Position numbers and translations under genes: made by a program
Source of the DNA: a virus
Lineage: Duplodnaviria > Heunggongvirae > Uroviricota > Caudoviricetes
Virus record (IMG/VR): IMGVR_UViG_2617270990_000009
Reading direction: 5' to 3' (one strand)
DNA length: 5,574 nt
The notes under the pieces: generated by a model
Database searches by the model: none
Told to the model about the DNA's origin: nothing
The model's input: only the letters and a program-made list of their open reading frames with translations
In this document: positions 380 to 5,574 of the stretch, piece after piece
Position numbering within the stretch: position 1 is the stretch's first letter
Layout: every line of letters begins with the position of its first letter

Positions 380-791
380 CTCCGGCATCTTTTTTATTGG
401 TTTGGGGGAGTGGATTAATTACCCTCTCAAGGTGAGATTTATTGGTCCTGGAGTTTGGACTCGTGGATATAATCGTTCTTCGTGCGCACTCGGTATCATC
501 TTCGACATACTTGGTTGTTTCCTGATTGTTACAGGAGTCGTCAAGTTCTTCTGATGTAAAACCGCAAATGGGGCACGTAACGGGAATTTTGAAAAGCGTT
601 TCTCCGGGTTCCAGAACAAAATTTTCTGCGGTCTGATTTTGCTTCTCATATTTGTGCTCCGCGTCATTGTGAGAGCACATTCTTATTCTGAGTGCCTGTT
701 TAAACTCACTGAAGCTGAGAGCTTCTTCGCCTTCGGCAAGGCCTTCGAAGTATTCTTCGTAAGCCTTTTCCATGATTGTGTCGAAATCCAT
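351..791 (-). CDS. ydfB/ydfC-like protein of the dicB-operon region (Cys-rich, CPICG...C...C); 3' end chimeric, last ~9 codons and stop lie inside the IS terminus, so native C-terminus is probably lost
   Basis: Minus-strand ORF; likely start is [17 protein letters not shown] at 789..791, one base after the ydfA-like stop, with AGGTGA RBS. The six-frame ORF extends to 833 but that overlaps ydfA. The reading frame crosses the IS boundary at 379/380. From memory it resembles K-12 YdfB plus YdfC, which I cannot verify. Confidence 0.5.
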
Positions 792-792
792 A

Positions 793-948
793 TCACTCAC
801 CTGAGTTTCTTTCCAGCCAGCGACGGGCACCATTTTCGGTTTTAAACGTTTTGCTTTTGGTATACGTCATCGCGGTGAACGTGCCGTCCTGATTGGGGAA
901 CACGCCACATACCAGAGATTCGCTGTTGCCAAGATCGATAGTATCCAT
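793..948 (-). CDS. ydfA: YdfA-like small protein (51 aa, DUF1391-type), first gene of the dicB-type operon
   Basis: ATG at 946..948 (minus) preceded by GAGGT RBS; translation MDTIDLGNSESLVCGVFPNQDGTFTAMTYTKSKTFKTENGARRWLERNSGE. Sits downstream of dicA on the same strand, as in K-12 Qin. Confidence 0.6.
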   Translation of the reverse strand: MDTIDLGNSESLVCGVFPNQDGTFTAMTYTKSKTFKTENGARRWLERNSGE

Positions 949-1025
949 GCTGACCTCATTTCCCCTTAACGCCGGGGTGGCGGAACTGTTTGCTGAGAAC
1001 ACCGTGCGGTGTGTTGATGTAAACA

Positions 1026-1054
1026 AGATTAGTCATAACTAACATATTGGTCAA
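1026..1054 (-). promoter_or_regulatory. Putative sigma70 promoter for the ydfA operon (dicBp-like): -35 TTGACC, 17-bp spacer, -10 TAATCT (minus-strand reading)
   Basis: Reverse complement of 1049..1054 is TTGACC and of 1026..1031 is TAATCT, with a 17-nt spacer; an operator-like site overlaps the spacer and -10. Confidence 0.35.
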
Positions 1055-1080
1055 GTGATTTTGTATGTTATGGCTAACAT
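1029..1080. promoter_or_regulatory. Two operator-like imperfect palindromes with CTAACA half-sites (TTAGTCATAACTAACA at 1029..1044; TGTTATGGCTAACA at 1066..1079), candidate DicA/DicC binding sites
   Basis: They share the TGTTAG/CTAACA half-site with the palindrome in the dicA-dicC intergenic region. Confidence 0.4.
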
Positions 1081-1114
1081 AATTGATATAATAAAAGATA
1101 ACTCATTGATGATG

Positions 1115-1522
1115 TTATCTTTTATTTGTCCGCTGACGGGCTTTTAGTAATTCTTCAAAGAGTTTATTGAAATTTTTTACTCGAGCTCGCATTTCGGCGA
1201 GCTGGGTATCCTGTTCTGATTCTGGCAGTGCATTAAACAGCTCAAGGAGCTCTAGTTCTTTGGGGGCTAAGGCAACCGGCTTCTCAACAGGTGGTGTTGG
1301 TTGCTTGTCTTCATCGCCAAATAGAATCCATGTTGGTGAGCATTGCAATACTTTGCTGAGGGCAAAAAGGTTCTTCCCTGTAGGTTCACTATCATCCCGT
1401 TCCCATTGTGATACAGACACATGGGAGATTTTCAGGGCTTTAGCAAGAGACCTTTGGGTGTGTTTGAGGTTTTTCCGACGATACCTAATGCGTTCGCCGA
1501 TGGTTAAATTTTTTGTATCCAT
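1115..1522 (-). CDS. dicA: DicA, P22 C2-like HTH_XRE repressor of the cell-division-inhibition operon (prophage immunity repressor)
   Basis: 135-aa ORF MDTKNLTIGERIRYRRKNLKHTQRSLAKALKISHVSVSQWERDDSEPTGKNLFALSKVLQCSPTWILFGDE..., recognised as near-identical to E. coli K-12 DicA from memory. Divergent from a Cro-like gene. Confidence 0.9.
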   Translation of the reverse strand: MDTKNLTIGERIRYRRKNLKHTQRSLAKALKISHVSVSQWERDDSEPTGKNLFALSKVLQCSPTWILFGDEDKQPTPPVEKPVALAPKELELLELFNALPESEQDTQLAEMRARVKNFNKLFEELLKARQRTNKR

Positions 1523-1524
1523 AG

Positions 1525-1538
1525 TTAGCTAATGCTAA
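1525..1538. promoter_or_regulatory. Short inverted repeat TTAGC-TAAT-GCTAA next to the dicA start; possible operator half-site pair
   Basis: Seen directly in sequence; lies 3 bp upstream of the dicA ATG on the minus strand. Confidence 0.25.
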
Positions 1539-1544
1539 ATCGTA

Positions 1545-1573
1545 TTGACTATGTTTTTGTTAACATCTATTTT
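1545..1573 (+). promoter_or_regulatory. Putative dicC promoter: -35 TTGACT (1545..1550), 17-bp spacer, -10 TATTTT (1568..1573)
   Basis: Consensus-like hexamers at the correct spacing, about 30 nt upstream of the dicC ATG. Confidence 0.4.
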
Positions 1574-1590
1574 GTTAGCCATGACTAACA
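1573..1590. promoter_or_regulatory. 18-bp near-perfect palindrome TGTTAGCCATGACTAACA, candidate DicA/DicC operator overlapping the -10 and start region of the dicC promoter
   Basis: Reverse complement is TGTTAGTCATGGCTAACA, so 16 of 18 positions are symmetric. Related sites are at 1029..1044 and 1066..1079. Confidence 0.45.
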
Positions 1591-1605
1591 TCTAAGGTGT
1601 TTTAA

Positions 1606-1836
1606 ATGCTTAAAACTGACGCTCTTTTGTATTTCGGTTCAAAAACAAAACTTGCACAAGCAGCAGGTATTCGTTTGGCTTCGCTTTATAGCTGGAAAGG
1701 GGATTTAGTTCCCGAAGGTCGCGCGATGCGTCTACAGGAGGCATCTGGCGGGGAGCTTCAGTATGATCCCAAAGTTTATGACGAATATCGTAAGACGAAG
1801 CGGGCGGGGCGGTTGAACAATGAAAATCACTCCTGA
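1606..1836 (+). CDS. dicC: DicC, Cro-like small DNA-binding regulator
   Basis: 76-aa ORF MLKTDALLYFGSKTKLAQAAGIRLASLYSWKGDLVPEGRAMRLQEASGGELQYDPKVYDEYRKTKRAGRLNNENHS matching K-12 DicC from memory; AAGGTG RBS 6 nt upstream; divergent from dicA. Confidence 0.88.
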   Translation: MLKTDALLYFGSKTKLAQAAGIRLASLYSWKGDLVPEGRAMRLQEASGGELQYDPKVYDEYRKTKRAGRLNNENHS

Positions 1837-2341
1837 ACAGGCTCGTGAGGCTCTGGATGCCTGGATATGTCGACCAGGAATGACACAGGAGCAGGCGACG
1901 ATATTAATCACTGAAGCATTCTGGGCTTTGAAAGAGCGCCCGAACATCGATGTTCAGCGTGTCACATATGAAGGTGGCGCGGTTGATCAGCGAGCGCTTA
2001 GCGTTAATCGAGTGAAGATATTTGAACGCTGGAAGGCTATCGACACCAGGGATAAGCGTGAAAAGTTCACAGCGCTAGTGCCTGCAATTATGGAGGCTAT
2101 CCGGATTAGTGATTTCAGGTTGTATCGTGAAATTAGTGACGGAAAGAGCATTACGTACATGATCGCTGGGTTAAATAAAGAATATGGCGATGTGGTGGAG
2201 TCCGGACTGCTTTTTGCAGATCCTGCCGTTGTAGATCGTGAAACTGACGAACTTATAGAAAAAGCAATTGCTTTCAAGCTTGCGTATCGACAGCAATACC
2301 AACAAAAAGCTGGATGGAATTATGAGCCTTCTTTTTGCTGA
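1820..2341 (+). CDS. YdaT-like protein (proposed functional analogue of lambda CII in Rac/CP-933-type prophages)
   Basis: 173-aa ORF whose ATG overlaps the dicC stop by 17 nt. The internal motif KREKFTALVPAIMEAI resembles what I recall of Rac YdaT; position immediately after the cro-like gene fits. Family assignment is from memory. Confidence 0.55.
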   Translation: MKITPEQAREALDAWICRPGMTQEQATILITEAFWALKERPNIDVQRVTYEGGAVDQRALSVNRVKIFERWKAIDTRDKREKFTALVPAIMEAIRISDFRLYREISDGKSITYMIAGLNKEYGDVVESGLLFADPAVVDRETDELIEKAIAFKLAYRQQYQQKAGWNYEPSFC

Positions 2342-3287
2342 ACGCCCACTGGTTATAAACACACAGCTTGCGATGAAGATTGGCTTAAACGAAGCCATTG
2401 TGTTGCAGCAACTGCATTACTGGTTGAGAGATACCAATTCCGGCATGGAATGTGATGGTGTTCGCTGGATTTACAACACAACGGAACAATGGCTGGCGCA
2501 GTTCCCGTTCTGGTCAGAGTCAACGTTAAAGCGCGCGTTTGCAAGTCTGAAAACGCTGGGGCTTTTGCGTTGCGAAAAGCTCAATAAATCAAAGCGCGAC
2601 ATGACCAATTTCTACACGATCAACTATGGGAGCGATCTTTTAGATGGTGGCAAATTGAGCGAATCCATCAGTTCAAAATGCGTCGCTCCATCAGGTCAAA
2701 ATGACATGATGGAAGAGGTCAAAATGAAACGCTCCATTGGTTCAAAACGACCCAATGTCATCGGGTCAAAATGGCCCGATGATCCTACAGAGAATACAAC
2801 AGAGATTACTACAGAGAATAAAAACACTTTTCGTCCGGAAGCTTTGCAACCGGACCAGCAGACGGCTGAACAGGATTTTTTAATCCGGCACCCTGACGCA
2901 GTTGTGTTTAGTGCGAAAAAACGGCAGTGGGGTAGCAGGGAGGATTTGGCGTGTGCGCAGTGGATCTGGGGGCGGATCGTGGGTCTCTACGAACAGGCCG
3001 CCAGTGATGATGGCGAGATCATGCGACCAAAAGAGCCTAACTGGACTGCCTGGGCCAATGACGTGCGCACAATGCGGATGCTGGATGGCAGAAGCCACAG
3101 ACAAATTTGCGAAATGTTTGGTCGGGTACAGCGAGATCCATTCTGGGTCAAAAACATCATGAGTCCGTCAAAGCTTCGCGAAAAATGGGATGAGCTGGTT
3201 ATTCGCCTGGGGCGTTCGCCAATAAAGCGTTGTGTGAATCATATTTCTGAACCGGATACCGAAATTCCGCCTGGTTTCAGGGGATAA
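2322..3287 (+). CDS. Phage replication initiator, lambda O-like (N-terminal winged-helix iteron-binding domain, linker containing the origin repeats, C-terminal DnaT-like domain)
   Basis: Long ORF; preferred start ATG 2322 (MSLLFAERPLVINTQLAMKIGLNEAIVLQQLHYWL...) overlapping the upstream gene by 20 nt. The six-frame ORF begins at 2268. Iteron array lies inside the coding sequence, as in lambda O. Confidence 0.7.
   Translation: MSLLFAERPLVINTQLAMKIGLNEAIVLQQLHYWLRDTNSGMECDGVRWIYNTTEQWLAQFPFWSESTLKRAFASLKTLGLLRCEKLNKSKRDMTNFYTINYGSDLLDGGKLSESISSKCVAPSGQNDMMEEVKMKRSIGSKRPNVIGSKWPDDPTENTTEITTENKNTFRPEALQPDQQTAEQDFLIRHPDAVVFSAKKRQWGSREDLACAQWIWGRIVGLYEQAASDDGEIMRPKEPNWTAWANDVRTMRMLDGRSHRQICEMFGRVQRDPFWVKNIMSPSKLREKWDELVIRLGRSPIKRCVNHISEPDTEIPPGFRG
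2664..2780. repeat. Origin-like iteron array: five direct repeats with core G(G/T)TCAAAA(T/C)G at ~23-bp spacing
   Basis: TCAAAA cores at 2673, 2696, 2719, 2742 and 2767; units 1 and 2 also share the TCCATCAG prefix. Located in the linker-coding part of the O-like gene. Confidence 0.6.
2787..2822. repeat. Three in-frame 12-bp tandem repeats ACAGAGA(A/T)TA.. (AT-rich), encoding TENT-TEIT-TENK; candidate DNA-unwinding element next to the iterons
   Basis: ACAGAGAATACA / ACAGAGATTACT / ACAGAGAATAAA read directly from the sequence, immediately 3' of the iteron array. Confidence 0.7.
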
Positions 3288-3327
3288 GTGTTGATTTCAG
3301 GTCATGAGGTAATTTTAAGGGGGACTT

Positions 3328-3756
3328 GTGGCAAAAGTTTTTACACAAGAAGAGCGGGAAAAAATTAAAGGGCAGGTGGTGGAACTCGTGCGCCAGAGCG
3401 GTCGTGAGACGTTACGGCAACTGGAAGCCAAGACAGGTGCGACAAGATATCTGATGAGCGCTCTTGCCAGAGAGCTGGTTGCCAGTGGCGATGTATACAA
3501 CTCTGGTTACGGGTTATTCCCGTCTGAACAGGCCCGTAAGGACTGGCAAAACGCCCGCAAAAAACTCTCGAGGGCAAAGGTGAAGAAACCCGCTGCGGTT
3601 GATCCAGACCTTATCTGGTCATTAGCTGACGGAGAAATACGTCGTTACGACAGACATCATAATATAATTTGTAGTGAGTGCCGTAAAAGCGAAGTTATGC
3701 AGCGTATATTGTCTTTTTATCAGGGAAATGTTCGATATTTATTGAAGTATCAATAA
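3328..3756 (+). CDS. Hypothetical 142-aa protein (possible winged-helix N-terminus; HH..C..C cluster near C-terminus); function unknown
   Basis: GTG start at 3328 preceded by a strong SD (TAAGGGGGA); ORF uninterrupted. I do not recognise a family. Confidence 0.55.
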   Translation: MAKVFTQEEREKIKGQVVELVRQSGRETLRQLEAKTGATRYLMSALARELVASGDVYNSGYGLFPSEQARKDWQNARKKLSRAKVKKPAAVDPDLIWSLADGEIRRYDRHHNIICSECRKSEVMQRILSFYQGNVRYLLKYQ

Positions 3757-3851
3757 CCTATTTAAACATTCCTTAAACTCAGAGTAGACTGGGTTAACAA
3801 TCTGTTTCAATTGCAAATTGACAATCTATAGCCAGCGCGACGGGAGTGTTC

Positions 3852-4283
3852 ATGTTTAGTCAGGTTGACATCGGTAGTTTCGGTAGTTTTACGGACCTCA
3901 GTTGGAAAAATAGCCTTAAGGATGCAGGTAACAATGTCCAGAATTTCAAGAGGCTTAACATCCTCTACGGACGGAACTACTCTGGTAAAACTACACTCTC
4001 ACGAATTTTCCGCGCTTTGGAAACGGGGCGCATTCCACATAACTACGTGGACCCAAATTTTACTATTCGTGGTGACAAAGGTGATGTGACACAGGTAGGT
4101 CTTGCTGGTCATGGCTACGATGTTCGCGTCTACAACCGGGATTTTGTGAGCGATAACCTAAACTTCTTGGTCAATCAGACCGACGGCGAGATCAAGACGT
4201 TTGCTATCGTTGGTGAAAAGAATAAAGAAATCGAAGATGCCATTACCGCAATTCAAACTAGGTTAGGCAGTGTTGAATCGAAG
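3852..4283 (+). pseudogene. N-terminal fragment (144 codons) of a P-loop ATPase (Walker A GRNYSGKTT; resembles AAA_13 / RloC-PrrC-like or related defence ATPases), truncated by the IS insertion
   Basis: ATG 3852 with GGGAG RBS 5 nt upstream (GTG 3846 also in frame). Motifs NILYGRNYSGKTTLSRIF and VRVYNRDFVSDNLNFL. Reading frame terminates on TGA at 4284..4286, which is the first three bases of the IS terminus. Proteins of this type are normally several hundred aa. Confidence 0.65.
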
Positions 4284-4337
4284 TGAACCGCCCCGGAAAT
4301 CCTGGAGACTAAACTCCCTGAGAAAGAGGTAAACAGG

Positions 4338-4664
4338 ATGACTAAAAATACTCGTTTTTCCCCCGAAGTCCGTCAGCGGGCGATTCGTATGGTTCTGGAA
4401 AGTCAGGATGAATATGACTCACAGTGGGCGGCAATTTGTTCCATTGCCCCAAAGATTGGCTGTACGCCGGAGACTCTGCGTGTCTGGGTTCGCCAGCATG
4501 AGCGGGATACCGGGGGCGGTGATGGTGGGCTCACCAGCGCTGAACGTCAGCGTCTGAAAGAGCTGGAACGTGAAAATCGTGAACTGCGCCGCAGTAACGA
4601 TATCCTTCGCCAGGCTTCCGCTTATTTTGCGAAGGCGGAGTTCGACCGCCTCTGGAAAAAATGA
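4338..4664 (+). CDS. IS3-family transposase OrfA (HTH subunit)
   Basis: 108-aa [33 protein letters not shown]... with leucine-zipper-like C-terminus; GAGG RBS upstream. Confidence 0.9.
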
Positions 4665-5551
4665 TGCCACTGCTGGATAAGCTGCGTGAGCAGTACGGGG
4701 TCGGACCGGTATGCAGCGAACTGCATATTGCCCCGTCAACGTATTACCATTGTCAGCAACAGCGACATCATCCGGATAAACGCAGTGCCCGTGCGCAGCA
4801 CGACGACTGGCTGAAGAGAGAGATACAGCGCGTATACGATGAAAATCATCAGGTGTACGGTGTGCGTAAAGTCTGGCGTCAGTTGTTACGGGAAGGAATC
4901 AGGGTGGCCAGATGTACAGTGGCACGTCTCATGGCGGTTATGGGACTTGCCGGTGTTCTCCGGGGTAAAAAGGTCCGTACGACCATCAGCCGGAAAGCCG
5001 TTGCCGCAGGCGACCGCGTAAACCGTCAGTTCGTGGCAGAACGACCTGACCAGCTGTGGGTGGCTGATTTTACTTACGTCAGCACATGGCAGGGCTTCGT
5101 CTATGTGGCGTTTATCATTGATGTGTTTGCCGGATACATCGTGGGGTGGCGGGTCTCATCGTCTATGGAAACGACATTCGTGCTGGATGCGCTGGAGCAG
5201 GCGTTGTGGGCCCGTCGTCCGTCTGGCACCATCCATCACAGCGATAAAGGCTCTCAGTATGTGTCACTGGCCTATACGGAGCGACTAAAAGAAGCCGGAT
5301 TACTGGCATCAACAGGGAGTACAGGCGACTCGTATGACAACGCGATGGCTGAGAGCATCAATGGTCTTTACAAAGCGGAGGTAATACACCGTAAGAGCTG
5401 GAAAAACCGTGCAGAAGTGGAACTGGCCACACTAACGTGGGTGGACTGGTATAACAATCGACGATTGCTGGGAAGGCTGGGCCATACTCCTCCGGCAGAA
5501 GCAGAAAAAGCTTATTATGCTTCCATCGGAAACGATGATCTGGCAGCCTGA
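4661..5551 (+). CDS. IS3-family transposase OrfB (DDE catalytic domain), expressed as an OrfAB fusion by -1 frameshifting
   Basis: 296-aa ORF in -1 frame relative to orfA, overlapping it by 4 nt (ATGA); DDE-type motifs ([24 protein letters not shown]). Confidence 0.9.
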
Positions 5552-5574
5552 GTTCACAGATAAAACACTCTCCA

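Follow-up and report, generated by a model that had tools for sequence, protein, structure and literature searches.

Why should a phage initiator gene carry, in the middle of its coding sequence, an array of 23-bp repeats followed by a block of 12-bp repeats? The question is raised by a 5,574-nucleotide stretch of caudoviricete DNA (IMG/VR record IMGVR_UViG_2617270990_000009; hereafter the window, i.e. the whole stretch that was analysed), in which an O-like replication initiator of 321 aa is encoded at 2322–3287 on the + strand. A first-pass annotation of the window had read these repeats as a lambda-like origin embedded in the initiator gene, and our analysis bears out this layout: on sequence evidence, positions 2643–2831 very probably constitute the prophage's cognate replication origin, lying within the linker-coding DNA of its own initiator gene. 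This reading draws on homology of the initiator to lambda O (E value 1e-27), on constraint acting at the level of the DNA, on co-variation between protein and repeats and on the presence of homologous genes in viable phages.

The motif GKTCAAAAYG occurs exactly five times in the window, always on the + strand (2671, 2694, 2717, 2740 and 2764), compared with 0.12 occurrences expected by shuffling; none of 200 shuffled sequences reached five. A repeat search placed the corresponding 23-nt units at 2666, 2689, 2712, 2735 and 2759, giving spacings of 23, 23, 23 and 24 bp, in agreement with the five copies at ~23-bp intervals described earlier. To iterons 1 (CATCAGTTCAAAATGCGTCGCTC, 2666–2688), 2 (CATCAGGTCAAAATGACATGATG, 2689–2711), 3 (GAAGAGGTCAAAATGAAACGCTC, 2712–2734), 4 (CATTGGTTCAAAACGACCCAATG, 2735–2757) and 5 (CATCGGGTCAAAATGGCCCGATG, 2759–2781), all on the + strand, we add a degenerate sixth unit on the same strand, iteron 0 (GATGGTGGCAAATTGAGCGAATC, 2643–2665; core TGGCAAATTG), which lies in register 23 bp 5′ of iteron 1 and at whose position relatives possess a good core (GGTCAAAGTG). 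The array is therefore better described as 5+1 iterons. Iterons 2, 4 and 5 form almost perfect dyads centred on AAA (18/23, 16/23 and 18/23 positions self-complementary, respectively), and the iterons, which are ~2.2 helical turns apart, converge on an A-tract.

The array is followed on the + strand by three 12-bp units (ACAGAGAATACA, ACAGAGATTACT and ACAGAGAATAAA; 2787–2822), as had been noted, which we recovered both with Tandem Repeats Finder (2787–2820, period 12, 2.8 copies, 86 % matches) and by pattern search (ACAGAGAWTA at 2787, 2799 and 2811; 0.02 occurrences expected). This three-unit block, of the type ACAGAGAnTAnn, is A-rich and of low stability, representing a candidate unwinding or helicase-entry element, and its first unit begins exactly 23 bp after the last iteron core, a gap also found in relatives from Klebsiella, Erwinia and Bacillus phages. 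The earlier description of the 12-mers as AT-rich holds in that the block is the least stable 30–50-mer of the gene (97–98th percentile of the window; least stable 40-mer, 2791–2831), but the enrichment is only moderate, with 31 % GC and an A:T ratio of 23 : 6 over 2785–2826; the AT-rich block of lambda has 23 % GC and the same purine bias in the same comparison. The number of 12-mers varies, some copies having four units (L007, 2966–3013; protein P0111), which adds one TENT to the encoded peptide.

The location of the repeats in linker-coding DNA was also borne out. Residues 109–174 of the initiator (DNA 2646–2843) have a predicted local distance difference test score (pLDDT) below 50 in the full-length AlphaFold model, a stretch that coincides exactly with the repeat region and is predicted to be a disordered linker; over the 12-mers it reads TENT-TEIT-TENK, i.e. 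the TEN/TEI tetrapeptides reported earlier.

Are the repeats maintained as DNA or as protein? As 23 bp does not divide into whole codons, the iteron cores fall in different codon phases (3, 2, 1, 3, 2 and 2, using all three), and the five cores are translated as SKC, QND, VKM, SKR and SKW. In a codon alignment of ten homologues, 13 of the 104 third positions of the N-terminal domain were invariant, against 84 of 104 second positions, while the iteron block had 25 of 39 invariant third positions, approximately equal to positions 1 and 2, and the 12-mer block 10 of 12. Overall, third positions are invariant in 64–100 % of cases in the repeats (83–100 % in the 12-mers) compared with 12–25 % in the folded domains (Fisher test against third positions of the N-terminal domain: P = 3e-9 for the iterons and 7e-7 for the 12-mers). 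Conservation in the repeats lacks codon periodicity, and amino-acid replacements cluster in the spacers, the iteron cores being fixed. We also assessed codon choice in 12-mer arrays located by the protein pattern T[ED]xT alone, relative to the rest of the same open reading frames (ORFs): glutamate was encoded 27 times by GAG and never by GAA (91 : 107 elsewhere, P 6e-9), and threonine by ACA or ACT in 58 of 61 codons (70/180 elsewhere, P 4e-16). Most copies of the 12-mer motif (85/99) lie in one codon phase, reading Thr-Glu; in Staphylococcus-, Bacillus- and Lactobacillus-type phages, neighbouring 12-mers are 11 bp apart and hence in different frames. Judged by these patterns of conservation, both iterons and 12-mers are constrained as DNA, and the 12-mer block is under DNA-level selection for its sequence, beyond its AT content. 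Codon phases, aperiodic conservation and fixed synonymous codons rule out a protein-only repeat. A structured RNA or known cis-element at the repeats was likewise ruled out, as Rfam finds none in the origin.

The earlier proposal had been staked on the repeats persisting in homologous initiator genes that still replicate, and they do. The isolated phage HannyBb encodes an initiator 95.5 % identical to that of the window, and derivatives of mEp460 encode initiators 79–95 % identical; all have the repeats and no other initiator, and HannyBb has no helicase-loader gene. The full pattern of five cores spaced 23/23/23/24 bp, three 12-mers and a 23-bp gap was present in 56 of 80 IMG/VR relatives, which are 96–100 % identical and were used for copy-number variation only. 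The same iteron/12-mer layout was found in virulent as well as temperate phages.

Two variant alleles concern the array itself. In one (L024, 1380–2252; protein P0019, 290 aa), recombination between iterons 1 and 5 has produced an exact 93-bp in-frame deletion (23+23+23+24), with the loss of four iterons and retention of a single hybrid iteron. This deletion resembles the classical in-frame ori-minus deletions of lambda, and by its sequence the allele could be a natural ori-minus prophage. In the other (L009, 2490–3453, Shigella flexneri SFBU0723), the initiator gene is frameshifted into several ORFs, and four iterons and three 12-mers remain.

Beyond these close relatives, the iteron sequence follows the N-terminal domain (N-domain) of the initiator. 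N-domains at least 70 % identical to that of the window, from Klebsiella phage ST147-VIM1phi7.2 and Citrobacter and Salmonella prophages, are accompanied by GGTCAAAATGAC-type iterons, while more distant N-domains are accompanied by other dyads at the same 22–24-bp spacing (GGGCAAATTGCCC, GGACAAAATGGCC, AGCCCAAAATGAGC, TTGCAAAATTGCAA and CCGCAAAC..TGCGG). The iteron dyads read GAGGGCAAATTGCCCTC in Erwinia phage Stean, GGGGCAAAATGCCCC in Klebsiella phage SopranoGao, GGACAAAATGGCCC in Staphylococcus phage 42E, TGGTCAAAATGACCA in Bacillus, AGCCCAAAATGAGCC in Listeria, TTGCAAAATTGCAA in Flavobacterium and Bacteroides, CATTCGCCGAATTCGGCGAATG in Burkholderia phage BcepMigl and CCGCAAACnAGAnTGCGG in a Citrobacter prophage. 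A Shigella prophage gene with the same C-terminal domain (C-domain) and an unrelated N-domain has iterons spaced 15 bp apart and no 12-mers. Since the iteron sequence tracks the N-domain, the two are inherited as one specificity unit, and this unit is joined to exchangeable C-domains at ..SRPDASQPD.., as one would expect for an initiator together with its cognate origin.

The joint itself can be located. An inverted repeat read from the sequence, GTCCGG-N11-CCGGAC (2833–2855, + strand), together with the encoded SRPDASQPD, lies where modules consisting of an N-domain plus origin meet the shared C-terminal part. This stretch is kept in relatives with different N-domains and iterons (L001, ~2967–2990; L010, ~2790–2815), and the modules found at it include the unrelated helix-turn-helix family with 15-bp iterons. 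The inverted repeat and SRPDASQPD look like a recombination joint between modules.

We then surveyed the family more widely using 59 representatives with <85 % N-domain identity, for which IMG/VR was queried with four distant N-domains. The best autocorrelation lag 3′ of the N-domain was 21–24 bp in 48 of the 59, and 34 possessed paired CAGAKA motifs 11–13 bp apart on the coding strand; the background for such pairs was four matches in 274 kb elsewhere, and first-order Markov simulations gave a mean of 0.43 and a maximum of 4. While the iterons vary, the 12-mer consensus ACAGAGAnTACn is kept at the DNA level across phages of Proteobacteria, Firmicutes and Bacteroidota, and its sequence, strand and distance are retained from E. 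coli to Staphylococcus, Bacillus, Listeria, Lactobacillus, Burkholderia and Flavobacterium phages. The C-domains and helicase partners of the phages with 12-mers differ (DnaB-like, primase-helicase, DnaC-like, lambda P or none), so that the constant N-domain is the most economical candidate to recognize the 12-mers. We therefore propose, tentatively and while judging it somewhat more probably wrong than right, that the 12-mer ACAGAGAnTACn acts in a sequence-specific manner as an origin element (opening or helicase entry) in a very large unnamed phage initiator family with a RepA_N-like N-domain. By analogy with DnaA boxes and DnaA-trios, the N-domain would then recognize two DNA elements, duplex iterons and 12-mers, the latter perhaps as single strands.

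The N-domain family is large, with 9,997 representatives at E≤1e-3 (50 % clustering). Many proteins of 450–880 aa in the representative library (P0243, P0245, P0251, P0269 and others) have two matched N-domain stretches each and, from their sequences, may be tandem-duplicated 'pseudo-dimer' initiators. The N-domain was also detected on 91 plasmid records, mostly 40–55-kb non-mobilizable plasmids of Bacillus, Clostridium and lactobacilli. As these have the look of phage-plasmids, the module may serve as a plasmid-prophage replicon as well.

The initiator of the window matches PHROG 391 ('replication initiation O-like', E value 5e-91), and an identical gene is named 'phage O protein family' in RefSeq, with a coding sequence starting at the ATG that corresponds to 2322. 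It returned no Pfam match even at E≤10, in a scan in which lambda O was recognized as PF04492 at 5.7e-36. Describing it as O-like proved apt for the C-terminal domain but not for the N-terminal DNA-binding domain, which belongs to another family. Residues 147–294 align with residues 135–270 of lambda O (BLASTP: 34 % identity over 148 residues, E value 1e-27), and the alignment starts at the 12-mer block, opposite the AT-rich stretch of lambda; the repeats of the window therefore sit where the iterons and AT-rich region of lambda sit. The homologous C-terminal domain (residues ~183–295; 2868–3206, + strand) is helical in the AlphaFold2 model.

The winged-helix N-domain (residues 1–108; 2322–2645, + strand), presumed to bind the iterons, displayed no similarity to the lambda O N-terminus (family comparison with hhalign, probability 0.06) and no match to RepA_N (PF06970) at E≤10, and a profile search of the PDB sequences returned neither RepA nor any other match. 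These searches thus revealed no sequence homology of the domain to lambda O, RepA_N or solved structures, and the link is by fold comparison only: Foldseek ranked 4pql, 4ro3 and 5kbj at the top with marginal E values, and by modelled fold the domain resembles the winged helices of RepA_N and DnaD's N-terminal domain (NTD).

The last 20 residues form a DnaT-like tail (KRCVNHISEPDTEIPPGFRG; 3225–3284, + strand), nearly identical to the extreme C-terminus of E. coli DnaT (phmmer against the PDB: 2ru8 and 9zbt). Only the last 21 residues match the NCBIfam DnaT model NF002770 (positions 159–179; 16.9 bits against a cut-off of 201 bits); no full-length similarity to DnaT was found, the rest of the protein being unlike DnaT. 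This tail-only match accounts for the label 'primosomal protein I' in some phage records. Contacts of the DnaT tail residues are not mentioned in the 2026 preprimosome paper, and we found no published description of a DnaT-like tail on such an initiator in the literature searched. The initiator is therefore a chimera, in which a RepA_N/DnaD-NTD-like N-domain and the accompanying origin are combined with a lambda-O-like C-domain and a DnaT-like tail.

In the window, the initiator gene is not followed by a gene of the P, DnaC or DnaB type; the next one is DUF977/Ren-like. The type of tail seems to track the next gene, in too few cases for statistics. A relative with the tail ..DGWEDVL (L026, 2501–4197; lambda O itself ends in ..DWIYGVDL) has a Phage_lambda_P gene next, and one with PPGFRG (L027, 2501–4219) an IstB/DnaC-like gene. 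No loader follows the PPGFRG of the window (3287–3756) or of HannyBb (L002, 2555–3983), the PAGFRG of mEp460_4F5 or the PxGFRG of Citrobacter prophages. Going by the sequence, the DnaT-like tail may allow a lambda-O-like initiator to dispense with a loader of the phage's own by engaging the primosome of the host.

As for the surroundings of the gene, prophage DNA within the window is confined to 380–4283 (3.9 kb), a remnant of a DicA/DicC-type (Qin-like) lambdoid prophage of E. coli bracketed by two inverted IS3-family (IS1203-like) insertion sequence (IS) copies at 1–379 and 4284–5574, of which 129–260 is the reverse complement of 4403–4534. The piece encodes dicA (1115–1522, minus strand), dicC (1606–1836), a YdaT/cII-like gene (1820–2341), the initiator gene, the DUF977/Ren-like gene (3328–3756) and an AAA_13 ATPase gene that is 2.4 kb in intact copies and is here cut at 4286 by the right IS copy. 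Near the start of this truncated gene is a perfect 9-bp tandem repeat (TCGGTAGTT, 2.1 copies, 3871–3889). The 3.9-kb piece is 100 % identical to copies in several E. coli chromosomes, with the initiator ORF intact, and complete E. coli genomes in the collection cover at most 78 % of the window in one place. In a gathering-threshold Rfam scan of the whole window, the sole match was the IS3 frameshift pseudoknot ALIL (4619–4735), with nothing in the origin region. A promoter consensus scan detected one + strand site, at 1545–1573 (TTGACT-17-TATTTT; consensus match only), and none near the origin, the total number of matches being below shuffle expectation. This site, upstream of dicC, is a candidate pR analogue, and a transcript from it would cross the ydaT-like gene, the initiator gene and the origin.

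How would such an origin work? Binding, melting and replication by the candidate origin are steps that we infer by analogy with lambda O/ori-lambda and pSK41 RepA. Derepression of DicA would allow rightward transcription from the promoter-like site at 1545–1573, making the initiator and activating the origin. Dimers of the winged-helix N-domain would occupy the iterons, introduce bends at the A-tracts and oligomerize, and the resulting stress would open the adjacent 12-mer block, one iteron period away. The conserved part of the initiator may hold the opened block as single-stranded DNA, the lambda-O-like C-domain and DnaT-like tail would recruit the host helicase machinery and theta replication would then begin.

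Some features weigh against reading 2643–2831 as an origin of this kind. The supposed unwinding block is only moderately AT-rich (69 % AT versus ~77 % in lambda), and lower stability is found in several stretches between genes of the window. The codon phase shared by 85 of 99 12-mers makes a protein-level role for TExT possible beside the DNA-level one. Finally, in a 3.9-kb IS-bounded remnant without a helicase-loader gene, this copy may never fire.

This last point underlies the rival that survives best, namely that the locus is an origin in form only, either an inert relic in an IS-flanked, repressed remnant or a structure that persists only because the gene is young. We consider it unlikely, but it is the one alternative of real weight. 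The confinement of prophage DNA to 380–4283 between inverted IS3-family copies, the AAA_13 gene cut by an IS and the lack of a loader gene after the initiator all fit a relic, as does decay in related copies, namely the Shigella flexneri frameshift and the allele that lost four iterons through a 93-bp deletion. Against this, the ORF shows no disruption, copies in several E. coli chromosomes match at 100 % identity across 3.9 kb, an isolated phage that is also devoid of a loader has a gene 95 % identical to it and defective prophages can retain active origins, as Rac does with oriJ (PMC3945230). Moreover, this rival bears on the activity of the present copy, not on the identity of the element.

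A second alternative is that the iterons serve mainly for titration, exclusion or autoregulation, soaking up the initiator of an incoming related phage or acting as a roadblock to the gene's own transcription, with no working origin. Plasmid-borne lambda iterons together with oop do block replication of incoming rep-lambda phage (PMC3349717), and the array is retained in many defective prophages. However, there is no sign of an oop-like RNA, Rfam being empty in the region and promoter-like sites being absent near the origin; 12-mers at a fixed 23 bp and a low-stability stretch are what an origin needs and a titration site does not; and virulent phages share the layout with temperate ones. We regard a device of this kind as distinctly improbable. 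Scarcely credible is the remaining alternative, that the repeats reflect a repetitive protein linker without DNA-level function: the 12-bp period is a multiple of three, gives TENT/TEIT/TENK and keeps one codon phase in 85 of 99 copies, but the iteron cores, read in all three phases, contradict it outright, and the lack of codon periodicity, the synonymous codons fixed across divergent phages (GAG 27 : 0; ACA/ACT 58/61) and the 11-bp, frame-changing spacing in Bacillus and Lactobacillus phages speak against it for the 12-mers.

With the repeats accounted for by an ordinary prophage origin, there is no call to follow up the locus as a curiosity. Iteron origins within initiator genes are a textbook feature of lambda and are also established in pSK41, and the window is a well-supported further case rather than a new kind. 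What is worth keeping is the initiator family, which lacks a Pfam entry and is annotated variously as 'O-like', 'DnaD-like helicase loader', 'primosomal protein I' or 'hypothetical', together with its shared origin signature, its sequence-specific 12-mer and the DnaT-like tail. The signature, 22–24-bp dyad iterons and then CAGAKA 12-mers immediately 3′ of the N-domain, could allow phage and prophage origins and replication (incompatibility) types to be predicted from sequence. Should the 12-mer prove to be a specific unwinding or loading element, it would offer a simple model, conserved widely, of DNA opening by non-AAA+ winged-helix initiators. In the literature searched, we found neither this origin type nor the 12-mer described; an earlier description is possible, key reviews being outside the search.

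Among known systems, ori-lambda and the origins of the Stx phages 933W and P27 also have their iterons within the gene for the initiator, in the part that separates the DNA-binding domain from the partner-binding one. The lambda iteron (TCCCTCAAAACGAGGGA) and that of the window (GGTCAAAATGACC) are both imperfect dyads around an A-tract and share a TCAAAAYG centre, and in both systems an A-rich, strand-asymmetric block predicted from the sequence to melt easily lies 3′ of the iterons, with homologous initiator C-terminal domains (E value 1e-27). Two contrasts drawn in the first-pass annotation did not stand. Setting the 18–19 bp of lambda against a 23-bp spacing mixes iteron length with spacing, as the annotated lambda iterons start at 39034, 39054, 39078 and 39101, i.e. 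20, 24 and 23 bp apart. Nor are five iterons unusual against the four of lambda: five or six are ordinary, and Stx phages have six (PMC7466680). The differences from lambda lie elsewhere, in an N-domain that is not PF04492, a putative melting block made up of a conserved 12-bp repeat instead of a simple AT run, the lack of a P gene and a DnaT-like tail in place of lambda O's own end.

RepA_N replicons (pSK41 and pTZ2162) and RepA of PLE, a Vibrio cholerae element resembling phage-inducible chromosomal islands, are also among the closest known systems. In pSK41, four Rep boxes lie centrally in rep, in DNA coding for a dispensable linker (PMC5703833), and in RepA_N origins the iterons, semi-palindromic in form, converge on a poly-A tract (PMC7145576). 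The window matches this arrangement in its central origin, linker-coding DNA and semi-palindromic iterons, and the modelled N-domain matches the RepA_N/DnaD-NTD winged helix by fold, not by sequence. It differs from RepA_N plasmids in being phage or prophage DNA and in its C-domain, which is lambda-O-like and not DnaG-binding. How proteins of the RepA_N type open DNA is still unknown (PMC7145576).

The gene order of the window, namely repressor, Cro-like gene, YdaT-like gene, initiator and DUF977/YdaW-like gene, is that of the Rac prophage of E. coli K-12, whose initiator candidate YdaU belongs to another family. Finally, the 12-mers are reminiscent of the oriC 13-mers, the DnaA-trios and the 13-mers of RK2 and F, which are bound as single-stranded DNA by TrfA and RepE, respectively: all are phased repeats at a fixed distance beside an initiator array. 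Compared with these unwinding repeats of oriC, RK2 and F, the block in the window has its own motif (ACAGAGAnTACn), a period of 12 bp and a position inside coding sequence.

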